From the IMG/VR virus record IMGVR_UViG_2563366982_000007: a stretch of DNA of 27,589 bases; one strand, written 5' to 3'. Below, piece by piece: positions 724-20,081 of the stretch. Each line of letters starts with the position of its first letter. The first letter of the stretch is position 1. The notes beneath the pieces were generated by a model. It ran no database searches. It saw only the letters and a list, made by a program, of their open reading frames with translations, and was not told where the DNA came from. The translations under genes were made by a program, and so were the position numbers. This DNA is from a virus (taxonomy: Duplodnaviria; Heunggongvirae; Uroviricota; Caudoviricetes).

Positions 724-1137
724 TCAGATTCCCTCCCAAACTATATATCCTTTGTCTCTTGCCCAACAAACAACTGTGTGGGCTGTATATGTGGATGTGA
801 AGCCGCAATAAGAACATGACACTTCATACCGAGTATTGTAGATGTTAATGGGCTCGTTCTCCTTGTGTATGGGAGTGACATATTCCCAATCATTTGAATC
901 ATCATAATCATCAAGTTCAGGGTCTGTGCCGTGAACAACCGTATGTGGAATAAACAAATCTGGGCGCCCACACGAGAGACAAGAGGTTCTGGCTCCTCTA
1001 TCTTTGAGGAATTGAATAAATAATTTGGGCGAAATCTGTTGCAGAACCTGCAAATGCCCACGTTCATTATCATTAAGAGACCTGTCTGCATATGGAAAAT
1101 CATCAAATTTAAGAGGCTTCATATAAGGCATCTCCAA
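724..1137 (-). CDS. Hypothetical Cys-rich protein (possible zinc-ribbon), co-transcribed downstream of int
   Basis: 137-aa ORF with two Cys pairs, C-L-S-C-G and C-S-Y-C-G. Its start region overlaps the int stop (alternative starts at 1128 or 1122), and its stop abuts the next ORF. Confidence 0.5.
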   Translation of the reverse strand: MEMPYMKPLKFDDFPYADRSLNDNERGHLQVLQQISPKLFIQFLKDRGARTSCLSCGRPDLFIPHTVVHGTDPELDDYDDSNDWEYVTPIHKENEPINIYNTRYEVSCSYCGFTSTYTAHTVVCWARDKGYIVWEGI

Positions 1138-2101
1138 GGGGATTAAATCTCACCGCATCCTGCAGGTAATCCGGCGCAAGATGGGCATAAATCATCGTTG
1201 TCTGAATCTTTGCGTGCCCCAAAATTTTCTGGAGGGTCAGAATATTGCCGCCGTTCATCATGAAATGACTGGCGAAGGTGTGGCGCAGCGCATGAACAGC
1301 CTGGCCGTCAGGAACATCAGGTGCGACCGTTTTGATGACATCGCGAACCAATGAATAATCCAGCGTCGGAAACACCAGTTTCCCGCCCCGTTTTTTGATC
1401 TTTTCAAACAGGCTTTCAGAAATAGGAACGGTACGGTTTTTGCTGTTCTTCGTTTTTGAAAAAGTGATTCGACAATGAAGAACACGGCGCTGCTCCAGTG
1501 CCGCTACCTCGCCCCATCGCGCCCCGGTCGACAGAAGGATTTCGACAGCCAGCCGTTCATCGGGATTTTCAGCCAGTGCATCCAGCAACTGAACACATTC
1601 AGACTTACTCAGGTATCCCATTTCGCGCTCGTTAACCTTCATTCCTTTAAGGCCTTGAACGGGGTTATCGTTAAGAAAATGGCCGGATGAGATGAGTGCG
1701 GTAAACATCGCGCTTAACGCCCCAATCTCTCGATTTATGGTGCTGGGCTGTATCCCCTGCTCTATCCTGGACACACGTAGCTCGGTGAGCATCGTTGTAT
1801 TAAGTTTATGCACGCACGGGTCATCCATTGCTTCACTCAAGCGCAGCAATTTAAGGCGCGTGTTATGCCCTGACTTCATTAGCTGGCCGTGGTATTTCCA
1901 CCACAAGTCAATAAGCACTGACAGAGGACGGCGATCAATAGAGTTTCCTTTCCACTCATTGTTATGCTGTTGCGCCAGCACCCACCGCTCATATAAAACT
2001 GCATCCGATTTCGTTTTAAATTTTTTGCGAATGCGTTTGCCTTTACGCCCCTCAGGGCGCATGTCAAGAAGATACCCTCCCGGAATTGATTTTATGCTCA
2101 T
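1109..2101 (-). CDS. int: Tyrosine recombinase / phage integrase (P2 Int-like)
   Basis: Translation has the tyrosine-recombinase C-terminal motifs (ARWGE, HALRHTFASHFMMNGG, LQKILGH, MIYAH) and an N-terminus, MSIKSIPGGYLLDMRPEGRKGKRIRKKF, that closely resembles P2 Int as I recall it. Start is trimmed from the track ORF (2251) to the internal Met at 2101 to match P2 Int length and avoid overlapping C. Confidence 0.9.
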   Translation of the reverse strand: MSIKSIPGGYLLDMRPEGRKGKRIRKKFKTKSDAVLYERWVLAQQHNNEWKGNSIDRRPLSVLIDLWWKYHGQLMKSGHNTRLKLLRLSEAMDDPCVHKLNTTMLTELRVSRIEQGIQPSTINREIGALSAMFTALISSGHFLNDNPVQGLKGMKVNEREMGYLSKSECVQLLDALAENPDERLAVEILLSTGARWGEVAALEQRRVLHCRITFSKTKNSKNRTVPISESLFEKIKKRGGKLVFPTLDYSLVRDVIKTVAPDVPDGQAVHALRHTFASHFMMNGGNILTLQKILGHAKIQTTMIYAHLAPDYLQDAVRFNPLGDALYEAS

Positions 2102-2150
2102 TCGTGAAACCCCAGCGTTACAAGACCACCATGCCCCCAGCGTTCCATGA

Positions 2151-2459
2151 TTAGCCGGGCTGTGTACCAGTCTTGCGGGATTTTTGAGAAGACGATGTGT
2201 TTTCTGGCCCATCAGGGGAGAGAGAGGGACTGATCTGCCCAGCAGCCTCATTTGTTTTTCCCGTCATAAGCCAATTCATGTACTTAAAAAAGCGAGGGTG
2301 ATTAACAATCTTGATAAGCACTTCGCCCCCTATGTTTTCAATCCGCCCCGTTTCATAACGACGCAAAGTGCCGATAGGCACATCAATCAGGCCGCAAAAT
2401 TCTTCGCGCGTTAAATCCTCTGATTCACGAATCACTCTAATTTTTTCACCGATAAGCAT
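2151..2459 (-). CDS. C: Immunity repressor, P2 C-like
   Basis: About 102 aa from the internal Met. The core motif EKIRVIRESEDLTREEFCGLIDVPIGTLRRYETGR resembles the P2 C repressor HTH region from memory. Position between int and a divergent rightward early operon matches P2. Confidence 0.7.
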   Translation of the reverse strand: MLIGEKIRVIRESEDLTREEFCGLIDVPIGTLRRYETGRIENIGGEVLIKIVNHPRFFKYMNWLMTGKTNEAAGQISPSLSPDGPENTSSSQKSRKTGTQPG

Positions 2460-2555
2460 TGACAGTGTTCCTATAAGTACACTAAGCTTGCGCACAAGGT
2501 GTACTTATAAGTACACCAAGTCACAAACAACCACAGATAGCGCAGGTTATCACAC
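2460..2555. promoter_or_regulatory. Divergent C / early-operon control region with direct-repeat operator half-sites
   Basis: Two copies of TATAAGTACAC at about 2472-2482 and 2506-2516; the second is embedded in a 20-bp perfect palindrome GGTGTACTTATAAGTACACC (about 2498-2517). TTGACA at about 2459-2464. The 96-bp region lies between divergently transcribed C and the Cox-position gene. Confidence 0.5.
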
Positions 2556-2834
2556 ATGGCAAAAGTCCTGAACACACACGAACAGGCAGACTTTGAGCGT
2601 TTAGCAGCGTTCTATCCCTACCGCGATGAGCATGGGTTACCAGTACTTGAAGAAAGCCTGAAAGATTACGCAAAGCGTACCAACCAAGCTGTTAACACAG
2701 TGAAAAGACAGGCTGACAGAGGTTCAATTCCCATCAACCAAGATGAAAAGAACTCAAGACGCACAGTAAATCTCTTCGCTCTTTTCCTGAAAACAATCAG
2801 GAGCGCAGAAAAATACGTGCAGATGACAAAATAA
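2556..2834 (+). CDS. First gene of early operon, Cox/Apl-position small regulator (assignment by position only)
   Basis: 92-aa basic protein immediately right of the operator region, transcribed divergently from C. I do not see clear sequence similarity to P2 Cox, so the call is positional. Confidence 0.45.
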   Translation: MAKVLNTHEQADFERLAAFYPYRDEHGLPVLEESLKDYAKRTNQAVNTVKRQADRGSIPINQDEKNSRRTVNLFALFLKTIRSAEKYVQMTK

Positions 2835-2848
2835 CGAGGTGTCATTTT

Positions 2849-3187
2849 ATGCTGAAGCAACGCCGTAATTTTCGTACCGGAACAGAACGCCACGCTAACC
2901 GTTTCACTACCAGTGCATCACGCAGCAACATCCGCTACAGCCTGAGTGATACACACGCAACGCCGGATAGCTACCCAGTAAAACAAATCGGCGAGCACAC
3001 CTGGCTGATTGAGAAAGCTGGAATCGTGATCCACAAATGCCCACGCAATCCGTTTACCGGAAACCGCATTTTTGCATTGAGCTGTGGCGACAATCAGTTC
3101 GGGCAGGATTTCACATTATACGAAGCACTTCGCACGGTTGATCGTCTGCTTCGCGGGCAAAGTTTTATTAAACAGACTGATTTATAA
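2849..3187 (+). CDS. Hypothetical early protein
   Basis: 112-aa ORF in the early operon, tightly spaced after the previous gene. Confidence 0.45.
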   Translation: MLKQRRNFRTGTERHANRFTTSASRSNIRYSLSDTHATPDSYPVKQIGEHTWLIEKAGIVIHKCPRNPFTGNRIFALSCGDNQFGQDFTLYEALRTVDRLLRGQSFIKQTDL

Positions 3188-3197
3188 CAGGTGCTTT

Positions 3198-3485
3198 ATG
3201 ACCAAAGACCATGCACAAGGTGTATTTATCCGTTTTATTGATTTTCGCGGTGAACTGTTATTACGTGCATCCGCTATTGACGGAGTGACTCCGGCGGGTA
3301 AAAACGGAGCCGACGAAGCCACTTACGTTTATCTGAACGGCACGCGACTGCTTGTGGAACTTCCGTACCAGACCGTACGAGAAATCATTAGCGAAGCTGA
3401 AAAGGCACGCCAGGTTAATGGCGATGAACCCTATATCGAAATTATTTGTATGGATTCAGAAGCTGAAATACAGAAAGCAGATTAA
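3198..3485 (+). CDS. Hypothetical early protein
   Basis: 95-aa ORF from the internal ATG at 3198 (the track ORF 3084..3485 overlaps the upstream gene). Confidence 0.45.
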   Translation: MTKDHAQGVFIRFIDFRGELLLRASAIDGVTPAGKNGADEATYVYLNGTRLLVELPYQTVREIISEAEKARQVNGDEPYIEIICMDSEAEIQKAD

Positions 3486-3493
3486 AGGGCGTT

Positions 3494-3739
3494 GTGATGG
3501 GCAAAGAATATAAAACTCTCATTAACAAAGCACTTGAGTGTTTTTATTTTCGCTTAAGTGCATCAGGCGCTCATGCTGAACGTGCGGCCCGTGACTCATT
3601 GACCAGAGCAATCCGAAGTCTGTATGACGTGGCTTTTTACGCTGATGATCTGGATGCACTTAACGAACTTTCCGAGCTGATCTGTGCCGCAGAATGCGGG
3701 GAACATATTGAACCGTATAAGCTGGGAAATATCGCATGA
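3494..3739 (+). CDS. Hypothetical early protein
   Basis: 81-aa ORF in operon context. Confidence 0.4.
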   Translation: MMGKEYKTLINKALECFYFRLSASGAHAERAARDSLTRAIRSLYDVAFYADDLDALNELSELICAAECGEHIEPYKLGNIA

Positions 3740-3849
3740 GTATATTTATCTCATGGCTTGTTCTGATTATTTCGGTGGTCTGCGCCATTGGGATTATGCG
3801 AATTATTAATTCAGTAAAAAAGATTGAACGCTTTTTCACTGAAGAATAA
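3736..3849 (+). CDS. Possible small membrane protein (37 aa)
   Basis: ATG overlapping the previous stop (ATGA). Translation MSIFISWLVLIISVVCAIGIMRIINSVKKIERFFTEE has one hydrophobic helix. It is below the ORF-track length cutoff, so it was read by eye. Confidence 0.3.
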   Translation: MSIFISWLVLIISVVCAIGIMRIINSVKKIERFFTEE

Positions 3850-3935
3850 CCGCGCAAATAAGACCCCAGGTTAAATAAGAAAATGTGAAAACAATCCGCA
3901 TTCGCGGAGGTATTCGCACACGCCAAGGAGGCGTA

Positions 3936-4139
3936 ATGGCAATTAAGCATTTTCCTGTCGTTCGTTTCACCTCCAGAGGACGTGAATACGAAGTTGACGA
4001 ACGCCTGATTACCACAATCGACAAACACCGTTCAGAAAAGGATGCACATCACATCTATCTCACTGACGGCACTTACTTCTGCGCCACCAACGTGGTGCAG
4101 GTAAATCTTATCAGACAGGTACAGGAGTCACGCAGATGA
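3936..4139 (+). CDS. Hypothetical early protein
   Basis: 67 aa from the Met preceded by AAGGAGG (the track ORF begins at 3885). Confidence 0.4.
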   Translation: MAIKHFPVVRFTSRGREYEVDERLITTIDKHRSEKDAHHIYLTDGTYFCATNVVQVNLIRQVQESRR

Positions 4140-4381
4140 TCATTCTGGACTACATCGCTGCCAATCCGGGTTGTAGCGGTGGAGAAATCGCCGCAGCACT
4201 GAATACACCAACCACAACCATTAATGCGGAGCTACGCCGTCTCTGGCGCAGCGGTTCAGTCATAAGAAAAGAGCGCAAAACAGGCGGTCGCTTTTCTTAT
4301 CAGGTAAACCCGATGCCGTTTGGGTGTAGCAACCCACTAACCCAGATGTTCAACCAGCTACTGAGGGAAATCAGAGCATGA
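4136..4381 (+). CDS. Hypothetical small protein, possible winged-helix DNA-binding
   Basis: 81-aa ORF whose start overlaps the previous stop. Helix-turn-like segment GGEIAAALNTPTTTINAELRRL. Confidence 0.4.
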   Translation: MIILDYIAANPGCSGGEIAAALNTPTTTINAELRRLWRSGSVIRKERKTGGRFSYQVNPMPFGCSNPLTQMFNQLLREIRA

Positions 4382-4522
4382 GCACCTCCAACTGCCGGAA
4401 ACCACGTCGGGCTTCAGCAGCTCATCCGGCAGCAAAACAAACTCCATTAATTCCTGTTCCGGGCCTTTCCTGCACCTTGCGGCGGGAGGCCTTCGCACAT
4501 CTGTAACAAGAGGATTGCCGCA

Positions 4523-4888
4523 ATGATTCTCGCCAACGACTTTCTTGAATACCTGCTCAACACAGAACGTGATCTTGCCGCTCGCGTGCGTGATCGTTAT
4601 GACATGTACCTGAAATCCCTGCCTGTACCGCAGCTCGCTGACGGAAAGATTGTTATTGATGGTCGCTACATGATTGACAGCCACGAGGGAAATTACAGGC
4701 TTTACCGCATTGAAGGTGGCACCCCGTCCGTTATTGGCATTTACCAGCGCCCATCCTCTGCAATCGTCGATGTGATTGCCGACAGCATCCGCATCACACA
4801 TCGCCATGCCGACACAGAAGACACCGTGCTGGAAATTCAGCGGCTGGCTACAGTCTGCCGCGACACCCTGAATGGCATGACGAAGTAA
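4523..4888 (+). CDS. Hypothetical protein immediately upstream of A
   Basis: 121-aa ORF ending 7 nt before the A start. Confidence 0.45.
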   Translation: MILANDFLEYLLNTERDLAARVRDRYDMYLKSLPVPQLADGKIVIDGRYMIDSHEGNYRLYRIEGGTPSVIGIYQRPSSAIVDVIADSIRITHRHADTEDTVLEIQRLATVCRDTLNGMTK

Positions 4889-4894
4889 ATCACT

Positions 4895-7660
4895 ATGACG
4901 GCAGAGTACATCAGGGACTGGCAACAACCGCGCCACGCAGTGGGGCGTGAAGGAACGGGGATCCCCGCTCCTGAATCCGCGCTTTCCTCCTGGCTGGATG
5001 CCTACCGGGTAGAGAACGAGCGCCGCCAGGAAATGGCTGATGCGGCGTTCTCCGCAACGCCGCTGGGCAACCTGATTAATAAAAGCCTGGACGCACAGGA
5101 AAAACAGGACAAAACCATCACACTGGCAGGAGATGCCAGAAAACAGGCACGCGGCGCGGTGGATGAAGCCATGGCCTCGCTGCGCCTGCTGCCGTCCTAT
5201 CTGCGCGATCCGCTTATTCGCCACCTCTCCTTCCTGCGCAAAAAACAGGAAGCCGATCGTCAGAAAGGCAAAAAGAGCTGGCAGGCTGAACGCTACGCGC
5301 GCGGAAACCTGCGCAAAATATTCGAACGTCTGGAGCGCACCGATCACCGCTGGCTGACACAGGGTTATCGCTCCCTTGCCGGACGCGAACGCCTGGACGA
5401 TTTGCTTTACCTGCCGCAGCTCAACAAACACCAGATACAGACACTGGCCACCATGACGGCGGCGATGTTCAGCAGCACCTTCGAAAAACTCTGCGATGGC
5501 TTTGGCGCGACCGATGGCGAACTGACCATGGATGTAACGCTGAAGGCGTATCAGATGCTGGCCCGCATGGCGTTACACCTGCACGCCATGCCTCCACATT
5601 ATGACGCACTGACAACAGACAAAGACCGGAGGAACGAACCGGACACGGAGCTGCTGCCGGGCGCAATCCTTCGCCTGACCTGTGCAGAATGGTGGAAACG
5701 CAAACTGTGGCTGTTACGTTGCGAGTGGAGAGAAGAACAACTCCGCGCCGCCTGTCTGGTTTCCAGAAAAACATCGCCCTATCTGAGCCAGGACGCGTTA
5801 AGCGAGTTTCGCGCACAGCGCGAGAAAACACGCGATTTCCTGAAAAGTTTCATGCTGGAAAATGAAGACGGGTTCACGATTGATCTCGAGACAGTGTATT
5901 ACGCGGGAGTAAGTAACCCGGTTCACCGTAAGGCAGAAATGATGGCCACCATGAAGGGGCTGGAACTTCTGGCCGAAGCCCGTGGTGACAAAGCGGTGTT
6001 TCTGACTGTCACCTGCCCGTCAAAATACCACGCAACAACGGAGAACGGTCATCCGAACCCCAAATGGAACGGGGCCACCATGCGCGACTCCAGCGATTAC
6101 CTGGTTAACACGTTTTTTGCGGCGGTCCGCAAAAAACTGAACCGCGACGGCCTGCGCTGGTATGGCATCCGCACGGTGGAGCCTCACCATGACGGCACCG
6201 TGCACTGGCATATGATGGTCTTTGCTCATCCGGAAGAAATCGACAGCATCGTGGCCATCACCCGCGATATTGCCATTCAGGAAGATCGTCACGAACTGGG
6301 CGATGATATTACTCCGCGCTTTAAGGCGGAGTATGTCGACGGCTCAAAAGGCACACCAACCAGCTATATCGCGACCTACATCGGAAAAAACCTGGACAGC
6401 CGCGCCGTAGATGGCATCGACCCGAAAACGGGCAAGCCACGCGTTGACCACGAAACCGAAAAATCAATGGCCGAGAGCGTGGAGCGCGCCATTGGCTGGG
6501 CGCGTCTTCATCGGGTCCGCCAGTTCCAGTTCTTTGGCATCCCCTCCCGTCAGGTATGGCGTGAACTCCGCCGCCTTGCCAGCCAGATGGCACGCAACCC
6601 GGAAGGCCCGCAACGGCTGAAGGATGATGCAATGGATGCGGTACTCGCTGCCGCTGATGCCGGGTGTTTTGCCTCCTACATTGAAAAACAGGGCGGCGTA
6701 CTTGTTCCACGTAAAGACTACCTGATTCGCACCGCCTACGACCTCGCAGATGAGCTGAACGATTACGGCGAGCAGAGTGTACAGATTTACGGGATCTGGT
6801 CGCCGCTCATCGGGGAGTCTTCCCGCGTGTGCACGCACCCGGATAACTGGAAGCTGGTAAGACGTAAACCGGAAGCGGAAGACAGCGCCCGCGAAAATGG
6901 TTTTGACCTTCAGGGCGGCCCTGCCGCCCCTTGGACTCGTGGCAATAACTGTCCCCGTGTACAGGAAACGGACAACAACGGGACAGAACAGCCGGAAGAA
7001 CGGCCAGCACCGTGGCCGCAGCTTCCTGACGGCGTTGATGTGGATGAATGGATGCGCTCACTGAAACGGCAAGAACGCCGGGCGCTGATGCGTTCGCTGC
7101 GTGACAAACAGGCAAAAAACAGCAGTGATGAAATGCAGAGCTGGACACAGAGCCGCAAACAGCAGCGGCCTTTGCCTGATAACCACGAATTACTCGCTAA
7201 AGAATGGCGGGAATCTGCTGAATCTCTCGGCCTGCATATCGGTGAACAGCAGATGCAGCACCTGTTACGGGGCGGCAGCCTGTACGTTGACGGCAGCATC
7301 ATTGCACCGCAGGGATTTGAAATTGTACGCAAACCGGATACCCGCCCGGACAGCCGAATCACGCAGCTCTGGCAGCGCCTGAGCCGTAATCACGGCGTAA
7401 GCAGCACGGAGATCCGCCATAACCCGGTCGCCAGCTATCTGGAACAGCTGGGGGCATCAGACCCCGAAGCCGCCGCACGCATGGTATCCACACTTCAGCA
7501 GGACCAGAACACCATGAAAACCCCCGTTACCGTGCTTTCTGACATGCTGCGCGTCATCCGTGACGCAGAGCACGCACAGAGAATCAATGAAACCACTGAA
7601 CGCGCACGTCACAAGGCGGGTCTGTTGCAGGACAAAGGCAATAGCGAGAAGAAAAAATAA
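4895..7660 (+). CDS. A: Rolling-circle replication initiator (P2 gpA-like HUH endonuclease) with long C-terminal extension
   Basis: HUH-type motif TVHWHMMVFAH and paired active-site tyrosines in SYIATYIGKN. Position after the early operon matches P2 gene A. At 921 aa it is longer than P2 A as I recall it (about 760 aa). Confidence 0.85.
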   Translation: MTAEYIRDWQQPRHAVGREGTGIPAPESALSSWLDAYRVENERRQEMADAAFSATPLGNLINKSLDAQEKQDKTITLAGDARKQARGAVDEAMASLRLLPSYLRDPLIRHLSFLRKKQEADRQKGKKSWQAERYARGNLRKIFERLERTDHRWLTQGYRSLAGRERLDDLLYLPQLNKHQIQTLATMTAAMFSSTFEKLCDGFGATDGELTMDVTLKAYQMLARMALHLHAMPPHYDALTTDKDRRNEPDTELLPGAILRLTCAEWWKRKLWLLRCEWREEQLRAACLVSRKTSPYLSQDALSEFRAQREKTRDFLKSFMLENEDGFTIDLETVYYAGVSNPVHRKAEMMATMKGLELLAEARGDKAVFLTVTCPSKYHATTENGHPNPKWNGATMRDSSDYLVNTFFAAVRKKLNRDGLRWYGIRTVEPHHDGTVHWHMMVFAHPEEIDSIVAITRDIAIQEDRHELGDDITPRFKAEYVDGSKGTPTSYIATYIGKNLDSRAVDGIDPKTGKPRVDHETEKSMAESVERAIGWARLHRVRQFQFFGIPSRQVWRELRRLASQMARNPEGPQRLKDDAMDAVLAAADAGCFASYIEKQGGVLVPRKDYLIRTAYDLADELNDYGEQSVQIYGIWSPLIGESSRVCTHPDNWKLVRRKPEAEDSARENGFDLQGGPAAPWTRGNNCPRVQETDNNGTEQPEERPAPWPQLPDGVDVDEWMRSLKRQERRALMRSLRDKQAKNSSDEMQSWTQSRKQQRPLPDNHELLAKEWRESAESLGLHIGEQQMQHLLRGGSLYVDGSIIAPQGFEIVRKPDTRPDSRITQLWQRLSRNHGVSSTEIRHNPVASYLEQLGASDPEAAARMVSTLQQDQNTMKTPVTVLSDMLRVIRDAEHAQRINETTERARHKAGLLQDKGNSEKKK

Positions 7661-7840
7661 CCAAGAAAGAAATCATCAATTGTATGAAGGTAGAGTTTAG
7701 ACATGGTAAGGACGTTCCATGGGGCACACTGTAATTTCATATAGTATTCCTCTTCCCTGTTTGATAAAAAAGTGCAATACTATAAATAGTCCAGTTAAAT
7801 GCTTTTTCAATTCACTTAAAATCAAGAGGTTACAGTTAAG
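7661..7840 (+). promoter_or_regulatory. AT-rich intergenic region upstream of the ATPase-peptidase operon; putative promoter
   Basis: 180 bp, markedly AT-rich. TTGATA at about 7761 and TATAAAT at about 7781 are sigma70-like, but the spacing is not ideal by my count. RBS AAGAGG lies about 10 nt before the 7841 ATG. Confidence 0.3.
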
Positions 7841-8962
7841 ATGGGCGACTTAGGTGGTATTCAGTCAGATTTAGCCCAACTAGTTAGACTGGTAATAACT
7901 GAACAGTATGATGACGTTCGGTTATATGTCGCTCGCTTGGTGCGTAAATATCGGGAAACTATGCCTGCTCTATCCGAGCAGCTTGATCTTTATCTACGAA
8001 ATAAACCGCAAAAGCCTGCACAAAGCCTGCGTAAGGTTACCGCACCAAAACAAGCGCTGCCTCAAACCATGCCTGTGGACGAGGAGTCAAGGCTTACCTT
8101 GCTTAAAGCACCAAATGAAAAGATTGTGAGCAAACCTCTACTGTCCAGTCAGATAGAAGACTCACTGGATCAAATTATTCTTGAGCGGAAGCACATCGAT
8201 CGCCTCAAGACTCTCGGCTTACAACCAACACGCTCTGCCATTTTTGTTGGCCCTCCGGGTGTAGGTAAAACACTTACGGCAAGCTGGTTAGCTCAGAAAT
8301 TAGGGGTTCCTTTTTACGTTCTTGATTTAACGGCAGTAATGAGCAGCTATCTGGGCAAAAGCGGAAATAACCTTCGGGCAGCTCTAGATTTTGCGAAGAA
8401 AGGGCCGTGCGTTCTTCTGTTAGATGAAATTGATTCAATCGCCAAAAAGAGAAGTGATGATTCTGATGTTGGAGAATTAAAAAGACTTGTTACCGTGATA
8501 CTCCAGGAGGTTGACGAATGGCCGTCTTCTAGTTTGCTACTTGCTGCAACTAACTTCGCTGAGTTGATTGATCCAGCACTATGGAGACGTTTTGATTTAG
8601 TGCTCAATTTTGAGAAGCCAGATAGCGAAAGTATTAAAGAAGCAATTAAACGCTTTTCGGGTCCCGACTACGCGATTTTTGCACGTTGGATAGATCTACT
8701 GGCTATTATGTTCAAAAATGAATCTTTTAGTAATATTGAGCGTTCTATCAACAAATTCCGACGTTCGGTCGCTTTAGGTATTTCCTCAGATGAAGAGTTG
8801 ATTGGGTCGTTCATTAAAGATGGTTTATCAGAATTAGACAGGAATGAACGTAAAGAAATTGCAGTTACTCTAAAAAGAAATTCTAAATTATCCCAGCATG
8901 CCATATCAGACTTAACCGGAGTCAGTAGGGATACAATTAGAAAATACAGTCAAAAAATGTAA
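7841..8962 (+). CDS. Classic AAA+ ATPase with C-terminal helix-turn-helix; candidate defense ATPase
   Basis: Walker A GPPGVGKT (about aa 137-144), Walker B LLLDEID (about aa 192-198), sensor-1-like AATN, arginine-finger-like WRRFD. C-terminal LSQHAISDLTGVSRDTIRKYS resembles an HTH. AT-rich codon usage unlike the flanking phage genes. Confidence 0.85.
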   Translation: MGDLGGIQSDLAQLVRLVITEQYDDVRLYVARLVRKYRETMPALSEQLDLYLRNKPQKPAQSLRKVTAPKQALPQTMPVDEESRLTLLKAPNEKIVSKPLLSSQIEDSLDQIILERKHIDRLKTLGLQPTRSAIFVGPPGVGKTLTASWLAQKLGVPFYVLDLTAVMSSYLGKSGNNLRAALDFAKKGPCVLLLDEIDSIAKKRSDDSDVGELKRLVTVILQEVDEWPSSSLLLAATNFAELIDPALWRRFDLVLNFEKPDSESIKEAIKRFSGPDYAIFARWIDLLAIMFKNESFSNIERSINKFRRSVALGISSDEELIGSFIKDGLSELDRNERKEIAVTLKRNSKLSQHAISDLTGVSRDTIRKYSQKM

Positions 8963-8985
8963 TACAGCATAGATAAGGAGTATGT

Positions 8986-11211
8986 ATGGCGAAAACTAAT
9001 TTTCTGATTGGACGCGGCGAATTATTAACCAGCGATATTCCTGGTCCTAAAAGAGTGCCCGGAAAAGCTGAGGTTTATTCTCTTTACGAATCGAAACAAC
9101 GTTTATTGCCGCAAATTGCATCTACTATAGAAAATTTTGATGATTTACCCAGTCAGGCATGTCCTTATGATTATGCTGTGGCTAAGTTGACGTTGAATCC
9201 AAGCTATATTGCACGCTCTTTTTTTCCTGCAAAAATGCTTAAGTCTACCGGGTTAACGTCTATTGGCAGCAGGACGGTAAAAATTACGCCTCAAAGCTGG
9301 AAGCGAAAAGTTACTGTGTCAGAAGTAACTACGACACAAATGTTTGTTGCTGGTAAAAGAGAATCCTTCAAAGAGTTACCTCATTGGGTGTCAGAACTCA
9401 AAGAGTTTTCTGACGAAGCGATTGATTTTGCACGCATAGAACGGTTCGATGCCTATTTACCCGAAGAGCGTATTATTACCATTGGTGAGCAGGATTCTTC
9501 GTATTTTGAGGTTGGTGTTCATTTACTGCCAGATAATGAACAAGACTTGGTTCAGCAACAATTTGTTCAGTTTGCATCAAATTTGAACATCAAAGTACAT
9601 ACTTCATTAGCTTTTACCGCTGGTACATTATGGTTCGTGCCAATCCAGGCCGATAGAATTACTATTAGTAAGCTTGCGAAATTTACATTTGTACGAGTAA
9701 TAAGACCGGTTCCAAGATTGCGTGGGATTAGACCAATACAAAGGAACTACGGTCCTTTAGCTCAGTGTAAATTACCTGCTGAGGGCCCCGTATCTTCAGA
9801 AATAAAAGTTGCGATTCTTGATGGTGGTTTACCATCAGAGCACGCTATATCGCCATGGTTAAAATCCTATAGAGTTTTGGACGATCATGCAGAGGATGAT
9901 CCAGACGGTTTAGAGCATGGTTTAGCTGTGTCTTCAGCCTTTTTATTTGGACCAATAAGTAATAAATCGGAAGCGAAAAGACCATACTCTTATATTGATA
10001 ACTTAAGAGTTTTGGACAACAAGACCTGCCAAGAAGATCCGCTGGAACTATATCGAACTTTGGGCTTTATTGAAGAGGTATTGTTGTCTCGCCAGTATCA
10101 GTTTATCAATCTAAGTTTAGGTCCAGACCTACCAATTGAAGATACGGAAGTTCATGCATGGACTTCCGTTATTGATGATTTGTTAAGTGATGGTGAAACA
10201 TTAATGACTGTTGCTGTTGGCAACAATGGAGAAATGGATCGCAAGTCTGGTAATGCAAGAATTCAAGTACCAGCCGATTGCGTTAATGCTCTTGCTGTTG
10301 GTGCTTGTGATACAGTTAATGATACGGAATGGAAACGAGCACCATATAGCGCCATTGGGCCAGGCAGAAGTCCTGGCGTGATGAAACCGGATTTAGTTGC
10401 GTTTGGTGGTGACACAGACGAGTACTTTCATGTTTTAGGTAAAGGTAAGAAGCCTGTAATCATACCCCAGCTAGGAACAAGCTTTGCCTCTCCTTACGCC
10501 TTACGAGCAGCTGTTGGTGTTCGGGCAATTTTAGGGAACGATTTGAGCCTACTAGCAATCAAAGCTTTGTTAATTCATGCGTCAAAACAGCTTGATCATC
10601 CTTGTACAGAAGTTGGCTGGGGAAAACTGCCTGAAGACTTGAACGACATTATAGTCAGCCCTGATGGTGTTGCCCGTATCGTCTACCAAGGTGAATTGAA
10701 ACCAGGAAAATACTTACGCGCTTCTCTTCCAATACCTGAAGGTGGCTTGAAAGGTAGAATAAACTTAGCGGCAACTTTCTGTTATGCAACAACCACTGAT
10801 CCACAAGACCCAGCTTCCTATACAAAAGCTGGTTTGGAAGTGACATTCCGGCCAAATGATTCAAAAATCAAAGACGGAAAACAAAATGCTGAAACCAAGG
10901 GATTCTTTGAACTGGCCAAATATTCAACTGAAAGTGAGCGACGTTCTGACATGGGCAAATGGGAGACCGTCTTACATAATTCGAAGAACATGCTAGGTTC
11001 AACTCTAAAAAATCCTGTATTTGACATTCATTATAACGCTCGTGAGGCCGGTGCAAGCATAGCCAGCCATAAGGCAGAAAAAATCAAGTATGCTCTTATA
11101 ATTACCATTAAGGCATCAAAGCACCAAGACCTGTATAACGAAATTTTACGTACTTATAATCAGGTGCTCGTGCCAATTCAACCGCAAACATCAATTCCTA
11201 TTCGTTCGTAA
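8986..11211 (+). CDS. S8 family (subtilisin-like) serine peptidase, cytoplasmic, with N- and C-terminal accessory domains; candidate defense effector or sensor
   Basis: Catalytic triad in canonical S8 order and context: Asp in VAILDGG (about aa 279), His in EHGLAVS (about aa 311), oxyanion Asn in VGNNG (about aa 413), Ser in GTSFASPY (about aa 499). No N-terminal signal peptide. About 270 aa precede and about 230 aa follow the protease core. Starts 23 bp after the ATPase stop with RBS AAGGAG. Confidence 0.85.
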   Translation: MAKTNFLIGRGELLTSDIPGPKRVPGKAEVYSLYESKQRLLPQIASTIENFDDLPSQACPYDYAVAKLTLNPSYIARSFFPAKMLKSTGLTSIGSRTVKITPQSWKRKVTVSEVTTTQMFVAGKRESFKELPHWVSELKEFSDEAIDFARIERFDAYLPEERIITIGEQDSSYFEVGVHLLPDNEQDLVQQQFVQFASNLNIKVHTSLAFTAGTLWFVPIQADRITISKLAKFTFVRVIRPVPRLRGIRPIQRNYGPLAQCKLPAEGPVSSEIKVAILDGGLPSEHAISPWLKSYRVLDDHAEDDPDGLEHGLAVSSAFLFGPISNKSEAKRPYSYIDNLRVLDNKTCQEDPLELYRTLGFIEEVLLSRQYQFINLSLGPDLPIEDTEVHAWTSVIDDLLSDGETLMTVAVGNNGEMDRKSGNARIQVPADCVNALAVGACDTVNDTEWKRAPYSAIGPGRSPGVMKPDLVAFGGDTDEYFHVLGKGKKPVIIPQLGTSFASPYALRAAVGVRAILGNDLSLLAIKALLIHASKQLDHPCTEVGWGKLPEDLNDIIVSPDGVARIVYQGELKPGKYLRASLPIPEGGLKGRINLAATFCYATTTDPQDPASYTKAGLEVTFRPNDSKIKDGKQNAETKGFFELAKYSTESERRSDMGKWETVLHNSKNMLGSTLKNPVFDIHYNAREAGASIASHKAEKIKYALIITIKASKHQDLYNEILRTYNQVLVPIQPQTSIPIRS

Positions 11212-11224
11212 TCCTTCAAGACAT

Positions 11225-11256
11225 AATGCCCCTCAATTTGAGGGGCATTTCTTTGC
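11225..11256 (+). terminator. Rho-independent terminator after the peptidase gene
   Basis: Perfect 10-bp stem AATGCCCCTC / GAGGGGCATT with loop AATTT, followed by a T-rich run; begins 14 nt after the stop codon. Confidence 0.6.
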
Positions 11257-11608
11257 ACAAAAGTGCACAAATTTGCACAATTTTTTTGAACGACTTTTTG
11301 CCCTTCCGGCCCGCATGGCGGCTGGATCCGTCAAGGATCCGTGCGTGCACAAAAAACGCGTTTTTCCTGCGCGCAGGTGACGGGGGAACAGCCCGCGTTT
11401 CAGGGGGTAAACAGCATTCCCTGAACGATGTCGCAGAGACACAACAGAATGGCCATATTTCTCACGCTGAGCATGAAAAAGGCGTGAGGGCTTTTGATTT
11501 GATGGGGTGAAAGGTAAGGCCGTCAAAATCGCACTGAGGCAGCGAGAACATACAGTCAACGCGGTGGAATTGCGTAAGTGAAGTGGTCAACAAAAACTGG
11601 CCACCGAG

Positions 11609-12756
<1,148 letters not shown>

Positions 12757-13031
12757 TATGGCACCTGTGTTGTTCTGAGGTGAGCATATCACCTCTGTTC
12801 AGGTGGCCAAATTCAGTAAACCACTTCAAAGAGTCTGACCGTCGATGGTGGCGATAAACTGGAAGGCGTCGTGAAATTATCTGATTGATACAGGAGCTGG
12901 AGAGCCGGGGCATAAATTTTTTATGCCCCGGCGAAGCAGCAGACAAGCGAAGCGCGTCAGCGATACGGCACCTTGCCGACCATACTTCATAAGTGCAAAA
13001 TACGAGCAAAGAAATCAATGGAGGCTGTCTT

Positions 13032-13556
13032 ATGGTCATTAATTACAAGCAGTTAAGAGAAAAACGGGAGCAGGTAAAGGAGAGCTTTCGCCGCAATGAA
13101 GATCTGACCCCGCTTGTACGCCTTGCCCAGGGCATTGTTGATGCTTATGAAATCTCGCTGGAGCTGCCATCACAGACCTGGACAGATAGCGACGGTAATC
13201 GCCAGCATTACGTTTCATGCGGACTGGAAGCAGCCGAAGGATTTCGCAGAATGCCTTTATCCCAGATCCCTGCCGCTACCCCCAAAGCACGGGGCAGCAA
13301 TGATGAGCGAAAACTGACTTTTAGTATTGAAACGGTGGTTGACGACACACCTGGCGAAGTCGCGTTCGTGCACACGCCTGTTTCGATCGCAATGTATAAC
13401 GATGAAATACAGGTTCGCGTTAATAATAATATCGTGCCACTTAAAGAAGGTAATTCACCCTACACCACCGTTTGTGAAGCCATTCAATATTACGTTCTCT
13501 CTGAAATTGATAATCTCAAGCCTGACGGCACCCAGAAAATGGTTCAACTCTGGTAA
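13032..13556 (+). CDS. Hypothetical protein (about 174 aa), orphan gene between the IS and portal gene Q, convergent with Q
   Basis: ORF with RBS GGAGG before the ATG at 13032 (the track ORF starts at 12993). No recognisable motifs. Ends at a shared bidirectional terminator. Confidence 0.5.
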   Translation: MVINYKQLREKREQVKESFRRNEDLTPLVRLAQGIVDAYEISLELPSQTWTDSDGNRQHYVSCGLEAAEGFRRMPLSQIPAATPKARGSNDERKLTFSIETVVDDTPGEVAFVHTPVSIAMYNDEIQVRVNNNIVPLKEGNSPYTTVCEAIQYYVLSEIDNLKPDGTQKMVQLW

Positions 13557-13588
13557 AAAGGACAGCCCCATCACGGGGCTGTTTTTTC
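13555..13588. terminator. Bidirectional intrinsic terminator between the orphan gene and Q
   Basis: Stem ACAGCCCC / GGGGCTGT with loop ATCAC, flanked by an A-run on one side and a T6 run on the other. Overlaps the Q stop codon. Confidence 0.6.
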
Positions 13589-14617
13589 ATCAAGAAGAGC
13601 ATAAGAGTTAAAACGGATCACCTCTTCGCCAAGCCAGTCATTGATGTGCTTCATAGCCTCCATGACGGGCATCAGCTCGTTAATTGCGTAAACCCGCGCT
13701 GCCTTCTCCACATCGCCAAACGCACTTTTTTCGCCCGGCATCGCCCCCATCAGTTGCGGCGGAACGCGGTGCGCAGCCAGCACATCATCACGGGATGCCG
13801 CCTTAACATTCATGAATTCATCTTTTGCGGTGATCTGCTGGAACGGCAAAATTTGCACCCCCTCTTTGCCCCCGTTGGGCGCATGAATGAGCACGTTTTT
13901 AAACGCACCACCACCACGTGCCCCCTGTAGCGTTTCTTTCAGGGAGTCCATGCTTTCGCGGTTTACCTGCGCTGCACCGATGTAGATAATGCACCCGGCG
14001 TGGGATCCGTTGTCGTAGTACAGTTTTCTGAACATGTCCGCCGAATGAGAAAGGCTGGCCGAGAGTAATGCGCCAAGATATTCCGGCATGCCGTAGATTT
14101 CCTGGTTAATATCCGGATTCATCAGGTGGCACACTTTGCCAGGACGAAACTGAAACGCGTCCTTGCCATCCTGCACATACCACCATGATTCAAGATCGCT
14201 TCCGCGTCGCATGTATTTCGCCAGGGCGTGCCGTAATTTAAGCGGTTCGCCGAGCATATTGCTTCGAAGCTCAAGGAATGCGTTACCGAACACAAACCAG
14301 TCCAGCGCCAGCGCCGAGAAATCCTGCCGGGAAAGCAGCGGGTGCGGGATGTAGCAACCGAGTAATACATTGCGCTTAAAGTAAAGCGCAGACTGATGCC
14401 AGGACGTTTGCCGGGCTGCTCTTGCCAGACCGTACCAGTCCACCGGGGTTTCATACCACCGCCCGTTATCAGCACAGTACATATTGTCCAGCAGGTCATG
14501 CCCGGTCAGGCGATAAGGACCATCAAATGTGAATGCACTGAGCGATGATTCTTTCCTGAGCGCATCAGCGAGATCAATGCGTGAACTCATGCGCACTTTT
14601 TTATTTTTTCTGCTCAT
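13571..14617 (-). CDS. Q: Portal protein (P2 gpQ-like)
   Basis: 348 aa (P2 Q is about 344 aa). Lies immediately downstream of, and overlapping by 1 nt, the large terminase gene on the minus strand, as in P2. Confidence 0.85.
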   Translation of the reverse strand: MSRKNKKVRMSSRIDLADALRKESSLSAFTFDGPYRLTGHDLLDNMYCADNGRWYETPVDWYGLARAARQTSWHQSALYFKRNVLLGCYIPHPLLSRQDFSALALDWFVFGNAFLELRSNMLGEPLKLRHALAKYMRRGSDLESWWYVQDGKDAFQFRPGKVCHLMNPDINQEIYGMPEYLGALLSASLSHSADMFRKLYYDNGSHAGCIIYIGAAQVNRESMDSLKETLQGARGGGAFKNVLIHAPNGGKEGVQILPFQQITAKDEFMNVKAASRDDVLAAHRVPPQLMGAMPGEKSAFGDVEKAARVYAINELMPVMEAMKHINDWLGEEVIRFNSYALLDEKTAP

Positions 14618-16368
14618 CAGAACTCCATAACCGTGAAACGCTCGTTTTCTCCTTCGCCGCCAATTGGTTCGTTAATGACAGCAAGCATGGTTGCCCACGC
14701 AAGGTCGCCGTGGCTGATCCCCCTCGCGCGGTCCGTTTCGTAAGTGATAAAGCCGCCCGGTGTTTTCACCTTACGCACGGCGTTAAAGGCTGCGACCAGC
14801 TCGCGTTCGGCGCGATCGTATTCCCACCGCCCGGCACGCATTATTTGCAGCATTTTCAGTACCAGCGACCGTTTTGATGACAGCGTGAAGGTGTACGGAA
14901 TAGCAGCAGGGAAAAACCGTTTCACTATCTGATAAACAGCCTCCCCGTTCCCGCCTGTCACATCAATGCCGATGTGTTCCACGTTGTAGCGACACGTGAA
15001 CTCTTCAATGACTCTGGCCTGTTCTTCAAACTCCAGCCCCTGAACGCGTCGCGTCTCCACCGTTCGAAAACGGCCGCCAGGAACAGCCGGAGGAACCACC
15101 ACGGACACAGCGCCGCTGTCGCCGTTTCCACTGCTGCCGTTTGCGTCATACCCAATCCATACCGGACGATTCCCCATCGGGCGGGGAGCAAAAGGTTTCC
15201 AGTCTTTCCAGTCGTCGTATCCGTCAACACCGCAGCCAATCAGGATATTCAGGTTAAATGCCGATTCCCCTTCGCGGACAAACTCACACATATAGAGATT
15301 GAGGAACTCGTCTTCGGTGTTTTCATCACGAATTTCGTCGATATCGGTGTGTTTCCAGCCGTGATTAACCACATCTTCCAGCGTGACAATTTGCCGCCAC
15401 GTCCGGTCAGGGCAGATAAGCCCGTTATGCAGCGTTTTCCAGTCCACAGAAAAACGCTGGCGTTTATGCGAGGCCTTTTTCTCGTTCCAGCGGTCGCCGT
15501 TCCAGTAGGCGTATGCCTCGTGCGTTTCGGTGGATGGCGTGGAGAAGTAGGTGCGCCGCAATCCGCTGAGGGTTGCCATAGCGCCAGCCACCTTGCGCAG
15601 TTCAGCAAAGCGACTGACCCAGAAAAATTCATCAAAATAAAAATTGCCCGTATAGGACTGCGCCGACGCAGCAGAAGTGCCGAGAAAATGCAGCTCTGCG
15701 CCGTTGGAGAGGATGATTTTATCGCCCCCTTTCAGCTCCACATCAACTTCAGCCGCAGCCTTCTGAATAATGCTTTTAAACTGGAACGCCTGACGACGCG
15801 ACGCAGACAAAAAAATCTGGTTACGCTGGTAAGGTTGCGCCACATCGTCACGCAGCGCCATCAGCAGTGCTTCCTGTGCAAAATACCAGGTCGCGCCAAT
15901 CTGTCGGGATTTCAGGATCATCCTGTTACGTATCCCGGCTTCCCTGCAAAGGGTCAGGGAGTCAAACCAGCCCCGCTGATGCCACTCCAGCCTGCTGATG
16001 ATTTTTTCCCGCAGTGCGGCAATCTGTTCCGGCGTGAAATGATTTTTGAGTTTTTTCGCCCGGCCTTTCTTTCCTGTGGCCGTCGCATCCGGCTGGCCAT
16101 CATGCATTTTTTTAAGCTGCCGGGTCAGCAGGTCTATTTCCTTAAAGTCACCGCCTGTTTTATTCTGTTTTTCAGTAAGCTGGATGAGGCGCGCATCGAT
16201 GGACTGCGTGACACGCTGCACGGGTGGCGTTTCATCCCACTGGTCGCGTTTTTTCCACGCATAAATCGTGTTCGGGTTTATTCCCATCAGACGTGATATT
16301 TCTGCGGGCGGATAACCCTGCCAGTAAAGTTGCCGCGCACGCTGGCGCACAAAAGCGTCCTGAATCAT
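14617..16368 (-). CDS. P: Terminase large (ATPase) subunit (P2 gpP-like)
   Basis: 583 aa, with an ATPase region and a nuclease region. Position and orientation, divergent from O-N-M-L, are exactly as in P2. Confidence 0.88.
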   Translation of the reverse strand: MIQDAFVRQRARQLYWQGYPPAEISRLMGINPNTIYAWKKRDQWDETPPVQRVTQSIDARLIQLTEKQNKTGGDFKEIDLLTRQLKKMHDGQPDATATGKKGRAKKLKNHFTPEQIAALREKIISRLEWHQRGWFDSLTLCREAGIRNRMILKSRQIGATWYFAQEALLMALRDDVAQPYQRNQIFLSASRRQAFQFKSIIQKAAAEVDVELKGGDKIILSNGAELHFLGTSAASAQSYTGNFYFDEFFWVSRFAELRKVAGAMATLSGLRRTYFSTPSTETHEAYAYWNGDRWNEKKASHKRQRFSVDWKTLHNGLICPDRTWRQIVTLEDVVNHGWKHTDIDEIRDENTEDEFLNLYMCEFVREGESAFNLNILIGCGVDGYDDWKDWKPFAPRPMGNRPVWIGYDANGSSGNGDSGAVSVVVPPAVPGGRFRTVETRRVQGLEFEEQARVIEEFTCRYNVEHIGIDVTGGNGEAVYQIVKRFFPAAIPYTFTLSSKRSLVLKMLQIMRAGRWEYDRAERELVAAFNAVRKVKTPGGFITYETDRARGISHGDLAWATMLAVINEPIGGEGENERFTVMEF

Positions 16369-16522
16369 TGCTCCCCCTGAGTAATTACAGGAAGATTACC
16401 CGCGCGCGAAACCGTTCTCCTTAACCCCCTGTTCTGGCCGTTTTCTTACAACAAAAGCCATTTGTATCAGCCTGTTACGCTTTGCCATCATGACTGAAGA
16501 ACCAGTCAGAGGGGCAAAAACT

Positions 16523-17359
16523 ATGGCTAATGAAAAAAAGACATCCCGCAAAAAGTTTCGCGTGGCTGTCTCCGGATCAACTGTTGATGGCCGCGAAATC
16601 AGCCCGGTACATCTGCGTGAAGCCGCCGAGAACTTCAACCCGGATGTTTACGCTGCCCGCGTGAACGTTGAGCACTATCTCTCGCCATGCCCGTCAAGCG
16701 AATTTTCCGCAATGGGCGATGTCACCGCGCTGAGTACGGAAGATATTACGGAAGGCCCGCTGGCCGGACGTACTGCGCTGTATGCAGAAATCGAACCGAC
16801 CGAGCGCATGAAGCAGCTTGTCGCTGACGGCAAGAAAATCTATTCCAGTATCGAACTGCACCCGCAGTTCTCCGTTAACGGGCGCGCCTATCTGGTCGGG
16901 CTGGCGATGACCGACACCCCGGCAAGCCTGGGCACTGAGCGCCTGAAATTCACGGCACAGCAACGTCAGGCGGTGATGACGTTCAACAGTATCCAGGGTG
17001 AAGCGCCGCTTATCTCCGAAGCCATTGAGTCTGAAATCATCGAAATGGCAGAACAACACCAGGAAGAAGGCACCCAGTGGTTTAACCGCGTAATGGGGAT
17101 TATTGGCCGTGGCCGCAAAGCGGATGACGCCAGTTTTTCCCGTATTCAGGAAGCGGTGGAAGGCGTCGCAACGTCACAGGCCGACATTATCGACCGTTTT
17201 AATGTGCTGGAAGCCCGCCATAAGCAGGACCGTCAGAAAATCACGTCACTGACCACAGAGCTGACAGCACTGAAGGAAAAACTGCGCACGCAGGACGGCG
17301 ATCCGCAGAACCGCTTCACCGCAACGGGCGCAGCCTCCGACCAGCTGGCTGACTTCTGA
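16523..17359 (+). CDS. O: Capsid scaffolding protein (P2 gpO-like)
   Basis: Motifs FRVAVSGSTVDGREIS and YLVGLAMTDTPASLGTERLKF match P2 gpO as recalled. Start set at the MANEKK Met. Confidence 0.8.
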   Translation: MANEKKTSRKKFRVAVSGSTVDGREISPVHLREAAENFNPDVYAARVNVEHYLSPCPSSEFSAMGDVTALSTEDITEGPLAGRTALYAEIEPTERMKQLVADGKKIYSSIELHPQFSVNGRAYLVGLAMTDTPASLGTERLKFTAQQRQAVMTFNSIQGEAPLISEAIESEIIEMAEQHQEEGTQWFNRVMGIIGRGRKADDASFSRIQEAVEGVATSQADIIDRFNVLEARHKQDRQKITSLTTELTALKEKLRTQDGDPQNRFTATGAASDQLADF

Positions 17360-17382
17360 TAAGACAAAGGAGCAAATTTTTT

Positions 17383-18435
17383 ATGAATCTGGTGATGTCA
17401 GATATTACCCGCAACAAGCTGGGTTGCTATATGGCGCAGCAGGCGTCGCTTAACAATATCCCGGTATCTGCACTGGTATCGCGATTTACCGTGGAACCCG
17501 CGGTGCAGCAGCGTTTTGAAAACGCCTCAAAGGAAAGTACCGAATTTACGAAAAGAATTAACGTGATCGGCGTGACCGACCAGAAAGGCGAAAAAATCCT
17601 CCTGGACACCACCGGGCCAATTGCGCGCACGAATAGCAGTTATGACGGCATCAAACGCCGTAACCCGAATAACGTGATCGATATGAAGTCTCGTCAGTAC
17701 CAGTGCGAACAGGTGAACTACGATACCTTTATTTCGTACCCACAGCTTGATACCTGGGCGGCCCACAGCGATTTTCAGTCCCGTATCAGTACACAGATCG
17801 CCCGGCAGGTAGCGCTTGATCGCATCATGATTGGCTTTAACGGCACATCCCACGCCTACGAGTCTGATTTTCACACCAACAAGCTGCTTCAGGACGTTAA
17901 CGTGGGCTGGCTGGAGCACATCAGAACCGATGCCAGCGAGCGCGTAATGAATGACGTGACGCTTACCTCCCGCAACATGGACAACACTGTGGCGCACGCG
18001 GGTAAGTATGCGAATGCCGATGCTCTGGTACAGGATGCGCGCTCATCCCTGCTGGATGAATGGCACAAGGAAGCTGACGACCTCGCGGTGATTATGGGGC
18101 GCAACCTGTTTAACTCGCTGCGTCTGCCCGTGCTGAACAGCATCAGCGGCCAGAATCCCAATGCGGAATTACTTGCCGGGCAGCTCATCCTGTCATCGCG
18201 CACCATTGGCGGGCTGGGCGTGTTCCTTGCGCCGTTCTTCCCGGATGCAACGATGCTTATCACCTCGTTCAACAACCTGTCGATTTACTGGCAGAAAGGT
18301 TCAATGCGTCGCCTGATGAAAGACGAGCCGGAATACAACCGCATCGCCACCTACCAGTCCATCAATGACGCTTATGTCGTTGAAGACTATGGCAAGTGCG
18401 CGATGATCACTGGCCTGAAGTTCGCCGACAGCTAA
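17383..18435 (+). CDS. N: Major capsid protein (P2 gpN-like)
   Basis: 350 aa. FTVEPAVQQ, IMIGFNGT and NLSIYW resemble P2 gpN. Follows O as in P2. Confidence 0.85.
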   Translation: MNLVMSDITRNKLGCYMAQQASLNNIPVSALVSRFTVEPAVQQRFENASKESTEFTKRINVIGVTDQKGEKILLDTTGPIARTNSSYDGIKRRNPNNVIDMKSRQYQCEQVNYDTFISYPQLDTWAAHSDFQSRISTQIARQVALDRIMIGFNGTSHAYESDFHTNKLLQDVNVGWLEHIRTDASERVMNDVTLTSRNMDNTVAHAGKYANADALVQDARSSLLDEWHKEADDLAVIMGRNLFNSLRLPVLNSISGQNPNAELLAGQLILSSRTIGGLGVFLAPFFPDATMLITSFNNLSIYWQKGSMRRLMKDEPEYNRIATYQSINDAYVVEDYGKCAMITGLKFADS

Positions 18436-20079: not shown

Positions 20080-20081
20080 CA

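Follow-up and report, generated by a model that had tools for sequence, protein, structure and literature searches.

A probable horizontally acquired IetAS cassette in the gpA-gpQ hotspot of a P88-like Escherichia coli prophage

The DNA analyzed here (the window) is the 27,589-nucleotide virus record IMGVR_UViG_2563366982_000007 (Caudoviricetes), whose backbone is 96-99% identical to that of Escherichia phage P88 (Xuanwuvirus, Peduoviridae) and its relatives. The prophage has an integrase and sits in the chromosome. Between the gene for the replication protein gpA (gene A) and the genes for the portal (Q) and the large terminase (P), it carries two genes, ietA and ietS, which encode an AAA ATPase and an S8 serine protease. 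Both are located on the plus strand with a gap of 23 nucleotides (nt) between them, adjacent and co-oriented as one operon. The coordinates of all features are given in Table 1. The evidence presented below makes it very likely that positions 7606-11253 are a horizontally acquired, self-contained IetAS cassette in the gpA-gpQ hotspot of a P88-like (Xuanwuvirus, P2-like) E. coli prophage. An earlier reading of the letters alone (the sequence-only reading) had described positions 7661-11220 as AT-rich cargo in a GC-richer phage backbone.

The product of ietA matched the PADLOC profile PDLC02196 (IetA) with an E value of 1e-77, residues 9-372 aligning with positions 5-370 of the 374 in the profile. 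In Pfam it matched AAA (2.6e-30), and weak matches to HTH_11 and HTH_23 were found at residues 339-369. In an alignment of 31 homologues, the Walker A motif (G137-T144), the Walker B motif (D195-E196), N238 (sensor 1) and R249-R250 (arginine fingers) were invariant, as was the last helix (S362-K368) of the three-helix C-terminal region. The nearest relatives of IetA by sequence in the Protein Data Bank (PDB) were Cdc48/p97/VCP (3e-47). The structure model of IetA was moderately confident (predicted local distance difference test, pLDDT, 74), and a fold search with this model also gave p97 D2.

The product of ietS matched the PADLOC profile PDLC02197 (IetS) with an E value of 1.1e-51, residues 36-726 aligning with positions 38-733 of 749, and Peptidase_S8 in Pfam (2.5e-19). 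Its D279/H311/S499 triad is intact, and D279, H311, N413-N414 and S499 were invariant in 35 homologues. In the alignment with subtilisin E, D279 and H311 fall on the catalytic Asp and His. The N-terminus of IetS, as read from the translation, has no hydrophobic signal-like stretch, and IetS is therefore presumably a cytoplasmic protease. Sequence searches of the PDB with IetA and IetS found no solved IetAS structure. The assignment of IetS domains by Foldseek was not used as evidence because the TM-scores were low and the model was poor; the unused hints were Tk-SP subtilisin with its propeptide, an ACT/ferredoxin-like N-terminal domain and a jelly-roll C-terminal domain.

Table 1. Features of the cassette and of the surrounding A-Q interval (positions in the window)
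Feature	Position	Strand	Description
Gene A (gpA replication endonuclease), conserved part	4895-7605	+	Left hotspot anchor; Pfam Phage_GPA, 3e-131
Last 18 gpA codons and stop	7606-7661	+	Travel with the cassette within E. coli
Cassette upstream region	7662-7840	+	33% GC (0.333); predicted own promoter and leader
Predicted ietA promoter parts	TG 7773-7774; AATACT 7776-7781	+	Extended -10; sequence read
Conserved TAGTCCA	7787-7793	+	Leader motif
AAGAGG ribosome-binding site	7824-7829	+	Sequence read
ietA	7841-8962	+	373 amino acids; classical-clade AAA ATPase with C-terminal helix-turn-helix
ietS	8986-11211	+	741 amino acids; S8 subtilase; N-terminal domain ~30-240, S8 core ~270-550, C-terminal beta-rich domain ~560-725
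Intrinsic terminator	11218-11257	+	11-bp G+C-rich stem 11225-11249, then T-tract
Conserved backbone segment	11254-11578	.	Right hotspot anchor; P88-like homology resumes at 11247-11254
IS3-family element (ISEc52/IS911-like, 1250 bp)	11579-12828	-	OrfA HTH_Tnp_1, OrfB rve; outside the cassette
Second small variable segment next to Q	12965-13595	+	Open reading frame 12993-13556; phrog_5091, function unknown; PHROG 1.8e-67
Q (portal) and P (large terminase)	13571-16368	-	Pfam Phage_portal, 8e-18; RefSeq annotation of the identical M1/5 region

The AT-rich island seen by eye between the end of gene A and the terminator behind the peptidase gene was confirmed by computation. The GC content of 7661-11220 was 41.2%, whereas gene A (4895-7660) had 57.3%, Q 52.9%, P 54.0% and the late region (16369-27589) 56.1%, so that the island lies far more than a few percent below its flanks. 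In a sliding window, GC fell from 0.57-0.59 within gene A to 0.38-0.45 at about 7500-11250 and then rose again. The 3560-bp window of minimum GC in the whole 27.6 kb started at 7731 and had 41.0% GC; all such windows had a mean of 52.2% with a standard deviation of 4.5%. When two change points were fitted by likelihood over 4895-13570, the island came out at about 7640-11300; GC was 40.9% within these limits and 54.6% beyond them, and the log-likelihood rose by 79.

Other compositional measures agreed. The third-position GC was 0.36 for ietA and 0.32 for ietS, compared with 0.59-0.69 for eight backbone genes. The dinucleotide-signature distance between island and backbone was 108, that of random 3.5-kb backbone chunks 51 +/- 17 with a maximum of 86. 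The impression that the island is rich in A/T-rich codons was borne out by the codon counts per 1000 in island and backbone: TTA (40.3 vs 5.2), ATT (42 vs 19) and AAA (49 vs 33) were enriched and CTG (12.5 vs 53.7) was depleted. The GC richness of the backbone is itself uneven, with 47% GC in the int/C/cox early region (1-4894). This lysogeny/early region, which contains the integrase (1109-2251), a Cox-like gene (2556-2834) and small PHROG open reading frames (ORFs), is well below the late genes in GC, and the backbone is therefore a compositional mosaic.

The boundaries of the cassette were determined by comparison with relatives. In four P88-like phages (vB_EcoM-569R5, P88, PhiR44_2 and Chuche), homology to the window was lost at 7605 and regained at 11247-11254, and the slot encoded ParM and a partition protein along with small ORFs of various kinds. 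Up to 7605, gpA is 96-97% identical to that of P88-like phages, and Q/P are 98-99% identical. The left flank (the 3' part of the gpA gene) was matched by 1435 of 5426 complete E. coli genomes, 42 of which run on into the cassette; among the matches listed, left-flank homology ends at or close to 7605. The right flank (from 11247-11254) was matched by 1107 complete E. coli genomes, with 43 running on into the cassette. The cassette as such is present in 44 complete E. coli genomes, in 43 of them at an identity of at least 99%, and always on the chromosome. It is missing from about 97% of the prophages with the same backbone. The proposal that the ATPase-peptidase operon is a cassette in a conserved phage hotspot is thus upheld by shared flanks, fixed breakpoints and alternative cargo; the comparison of A-Q cargo in related P2-like prophages, which had been suggested along with it, gave mostly ParM-type partition genes in the relatives examined.

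The segment 7606-7661 had no match in cassette-less P88-like phages and was 98-100% identical in cassette-bearing strains. The unit of exchange within E. coli is accordingly somewhat longer than the operon, namely, 7606-11253, including the last 18 gpA codons and the terminator. Because these codons lie in the exchanged block, cassette swaps would rewrite the C-terminal tail of gpA, which has 921 amino acids here and 940 in cassette-less relatives. The extent read by eye differed from this unit by about 55 bp on the left and 35 bp on the right, and a by-eye scan of composition can locate such cargo to about 50 bp. Among related prophages the exchange would probably proceed by homologous recombination in the conserved flanks, i.e., the 3' part of the gpA gene and the segment that starts with the TGCACAA repeats described below. 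A search for flanking repeats or att-like sites that could serve site-specific insertion of the cassette gave only chance-level matches of 14-21 nt, and no tRNA genes that could serve as integration targets were found in the window.

The divergence of the cassette differed from that of its flanks. In E. coli UMNK88, O18 and CAVP819, the block 7606-11253 was 99.7-100% identical to the window. The flanks in these strains were 95.6-96.1% (gpA, 5198-7605) and 93.6-95.4% (right flank, 11254-11578) identical and thus no closer to the window than the flanks of cassette-less phages. Divergence between strains is 15-fold lower in the cassette than in the flanks. The possibility that ietAS is a conserved part of the backbone that diverges together with it is contradicted by these identities and by the flank counts.

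The same cassette was found in the A-Q interval of a Salmonella enterica P2-like prophage (locus L003, CP191473.1, 8673-12228). Nucleotide homology between this prophage and the window, at 87%, was confined to 7662-11213, so the end of gpA (7606-7661) is not common to the Salmonella copy. At the amino acid level, IetS and IetA were 93% and 94% identical, compared with 31% for gpA, 53% for Q and 56% for P. In Duganella phyllosphaerae (Betaproteobacteria; L038, 8850-12211), ietAS adjoins homologues of gpQ and gpP. In both the Salmonella and the Duganella P2-like prophages, ietAS is about 9-13 GC points below the phage flanks. The order ietA to ietS was kept in 54 loci across Proteobacteria. Together, the identity discontinuity and the reuse across genera support a recent modular spread of the cassette. 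The claim of recent acquisition made in the sequence-only reading is supported by this discontinuity between cassette and flanks and not by low GC alone.

The GC content of the cassette over the IetAS loci ranges from 37% to 63% and largely tracks that of the host; low GC is hence not intrinsic to the IetAS family, and this explanation was rejected. The E. coli cassette has 41-42% GC, unchanged in the Salmonella copy, which points to a probable origin in a lower-GC lineage. Proteus alimentorum carries a pair that is 73%/82% identical and has 37% GC.

The expression signals of ietA were compared in 51 distinct upstream regions from Alpha-, Beta-, Gamma- and Deltaproteobacteria (loci L003-L064). 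The conserved promoter/leader, at 7749-7840 in the window, is made up of CTTCA as a -35-like element, TGAGAnAAT as an extended -10 element, TAGTCCA and an AT-rich leader that ends in ATCAAnnAGTTA. The strict pattern was present in 33 of the 51 regions, always 67-69 nt ahead of the start codon, where 0.03 would be expected from shuffled sequences. No conserved RNA structure was detected in the ietA leader (RNAalifold, 0 pairs on 36 leaders), and Rfam gave no match anywhere in the window. A 15-nt inverted repeat (7740-7754/7770-7784; TATAGTATTCCTCTT / AAGTGCAATACTATA) overlaps the predicted promoter. Its interpretation as a conserved operator was not supported, since the repeat is retained in the close Salmonella copy and not in distant IetAS loci.

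The terminator behind ietS was found by direct folding after having been missed by a simple terminator scan. It folds at -19.4 kcal/mol (z = -4.8), and none of 200 shuffled sequences was as stable. The terminator was 100% conserved in the cassette-bearing strains and absent from the cassette-less relatives. With a conserved promoter/leader at one end and a strong terminator at the other, the cassette therefore appears to be a self-contained expression unit. The conserved promoter/leader, together with the invariant helix of the helix-turn-helix region of IetA, suggests a putative autoregulation in the style of antitoxins.

The A-Q interval is not all cargo; a conserved backbone segment, an insertion sequence (IS) element and a further small variable gene also lie in it. 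Three tandem 10-bp TGCACAA repeats (11255-11284; TGCACAAAAG, TGCACAAATT, TGCACAATTT) lie exactly where backbone homology resumes; even the Salmonella P2-like phage, a distant one, has retained TGCACA repeats. They might bind a protein near cos or serve as an anchor for recombination. The G-rich stretch of 19 nt at 11376-11394 (GGTGACGGGGGAACAGCCC) resembles the cohesive end of P2 at about 13 of 19 positions and is an unconfirmed candidate for cos. The segment 11254-11578 presumably holds cos, to judge from the biology of P2 (PMC9122126).

The IS3-family element next to this segment ends in inverted repeats of 27 nt, and the target duplication on its two sides is AAG (11576-11578 and 12829-12831). 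E. coli M1/5, which is otherwise 99.99% identical, lacks the element at this site. A 100%-identical copy of it in M1/5 joins window position 529 to 3965, and the integrase-to-early region of that prophage is deleted. Window positions 1-529 correspond in M1/5 to the sequence upstream of btuC and to a DUF1640 gene. The second variable segment (12965-13595) is present in 569R5, PhiR44_2 and M1/5 and missing from P88, Chuche, UMNK88, O18 and CAVP819; its ORF is annotated in M1/5 as a 174-amino-acid hypothetical protein (WP_000236495). Within the Q/P region, the portal protein is encoded at 13571-14617.

Damaged copies of the cassette were also seen (E. coli genomes NZ_CM143910.1, which is strain E06, NZ_CP169013.1, NZ_CP077596.1 and NZ_CP077515.1). 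ietS is broken by ISKpn26 in E06, IS1203 lies within the matched cassette region in O111 and related strains, and some copies are partly deleted. Apart from the ISKpn26 and IS1203 cases, the IS3-family element described above does not appear among the features given for the matched region in the rest of the complete genomes with the cassette. The interrupted and partly deleted copies could fit a cost of carrying a protease toxin; they prove nothing.

IetAS was first identified as a plasmid-stabilizing toxin-antitoxin system in which the toxin is a serine protease and the antitoxin an ATPase, and its mechanism remains unknown (PMC13069673). As cited in that paper, it is the defense system of Gao et al. 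(2020) and goes back to the ietA/ietS pair found on plasmid pTiC58 (Yamamoto et al., 2009). A Bacillus cereus IetAS acts as an abortive-infection system that is set off when a phage protein is expressed (Stokar-Avihail et al., bioRxiv 10.1101/2022.08.27.505566), and the IetAS of E. coli is located in prophages (Wu et al., bioRxiv 10.1101/2022.08.21.504612). That the prophage carries an IetAS pair, which would be expressed in the lysogen, can be taken as established. A possible course of events is as follows. The cassette would be expressed from the lysogen, and the p97-like IetA, probably as a hexamer, would spend ATP in holding the cytoplasmic IetS inactive. A product of an infecting phage would disturb this restraint, which we infer IetA to exert on IetS. 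The freed IetS would then cleave proteins of the cell or the phage, the infected cell would stop producing phage, i.e., the infection would be aborted, and the lysogen population and hence the prophage would be protected.

Several observations weigh against a horizontally acquired cassette that works in this way. The aromatic residue of the IetA pore loop, Y170, is not conserved, the consensus in the 31-homologue alignment being SSLLG, and a simple threading model is weakened by this. The AlphaFold model of IetS is poor (mean pLDDT 54, with the S8 core below 50), so structure-based domain assignments are weak. The cloned IetAS of E. coli ECOR52 gave limited protection on its own, as did the other single systems tested except Gabija (bioRxiv 10.1101/2022.08.21.504612). 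Triggering and abortive infection were studied with the B. cereus homologue, which belongs to another clade (bioRxiv 10.1101/2022.08.27.505566). Finally, the alternative cargo at the slot in the four P88-like relatives is also GC poor, with 42-52% compared with 58% for gpA, and low GC alone is for this reason weak evidence of recency or foreign origin. The last point would also fit an explanation in which low GC is a standing property of the slot, filled with AT-rich and possibly H-NS-silenced accessory genes, or is intrinsic to the family, rather than a sign of recent foreign acquisition. The 47% GC of the early region agrees with this explanation. It is nevertheless improbable, and it is largely refuted by the wide and mostly host-following GC range of the family and by the 15-fold difference in divergence between cassette and flanks; the presence of the same cassette in the unrelated backbone of the Salmonella P2-like prophage also speaks against it. 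It is hardly credible that the two genes have ordinary backbone functions, such as a protease in morphogenesis and an ATPase in packaging or replication. Both proteins do belong to PHROG families of unknown function, phrog_3757 and phrog_3964. They are, however, missing from nearly all prophages with the same backbone, occur in many nonphage contexts across Proteobacteria and match defense-system models of PADLOC over their full length.

The role of the cassette could also differ from defense. It might be mainly an addiction or maintenance module of the prophage that acts by postsegregational killing and replaces a ParM/ParR-type partition system, its antiphage role being secondary or absent. 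The first description of IetAS as a plasmid-stability toxin-antitoxin system (PMC13069673) is in line with this, as are the ParM and partition protein found in the same slot of the four P88-like phages, the suggestion of Rousset et al. (PMC9122126) that such phages may persist as plasmids and the weak protection conferred by the cloned E. coli pair. Yet homologues of IetAS do protect against phages and need the protease for it (PMC13069673; bioRxiv 10.1101/2022.08.27.505566). Moreover, the prophage has an integrase and is integrated in the chromosome, so that partition or addiction is less obviously needed. A mainly maintenance role is considered unlikely, though it retains appreciable weight, and the maintenance and defense roles are not mutually exclusive. 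Taken jointly, the conserved promoter/leader and the helix-turn-helix region might form an autoregulatory circuit as in toxin-antitoxin antitoxins, and the cassette may be a drop-in replacement of ParM in the same slot, serving maintenance or addiction; this combination is speculative and unlikely. Neither the autoregulatory circuit nor the replacement of ParM was found in the literature covered on IetAS and the hotspot. The conserved promoter/leader and the invariant helix are small leads toward the mechanism of IetAS.

The interpretation of 7606-11253 as an acquired IetAS cassette agrees with what is known of the site. At the gpA-gpQ locus of P2-like phages, a hotspot adjacent to cos, 18,150 E. 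coli loci show 1,650 gene arrangements; about one-fourth of these have a putative partition system and many have defense systems (Rousset et al., 2022; PMC9122126). The slot described here agrees with this (old/tin) hotspot in lying between the genes for the replication protein and for the portal and in a content that varies among close relatives, with partition and defense systems among it. The differences are that the backbone here is P88-like (Xuanwuvirus) and not that of P2 and that an IS3-family element is also present in the interval. Table S5A of that study lists WP_000502620, WP_001556981 and WP_000236495 at the gpA-gpQ locus, with the variant "AAA/HTH_50 + Peptidase_S8"; these are the RefSeq accessions of the 100%-identical M1/5 region. 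Table S5B gives 400 occurrences of a Peptidase_S8/AAA system, "ietAS (Gao et al., 2020)," in which the gene order (Peptidase_S8 and then AAA) is reversed relative to the cassette described here. The hotspot, the system and the exact gene pair are thus already published, and the cassette adds nothing new on either the hotspot or IetAS. It is a clean textbook example of temperate phages swapping accessory defense genes at a fixed slot.

Among pairs of AAA+ unfoldases and proteases (p97/Cdc48, FtsH and the proteasomal Rpt ATPases), the likeness lies in the ATPase domain of IetA, a classical-clade AAA module. Unlike these proteins, IetA contains only one AAA module, preceded at the N-terminus by an unrelated helical region and followed at the C-terminus by a helix-turn-helix. 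Its partner is a subtilase and not a self-compartmentalized protease, and the genetic data (PMC13069673) have the ATPase of IetAS restraining the protease, not feeding it. The resemblance is confined to the ATPase fold. The ietHAS system (Liu-DS4; PMC13069673), whose protease is required for defense, shares the IetA and IetS modules. It has in addition the SNF2-type helicase gene ietH, whereas no such gene is present here, where ietA is flanked upstream by gpA and ietS is followed by the terminator. The closest counterpart is IetAS itself, with the same two-gene operon on one strand, the AAA ATPase first and the S8 serine protease second, full-length PADLOC matches and intact catalytic residues. 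No system-defining difference from IetAS was found, and the cassette described here represents one enterobacterial clade of it.

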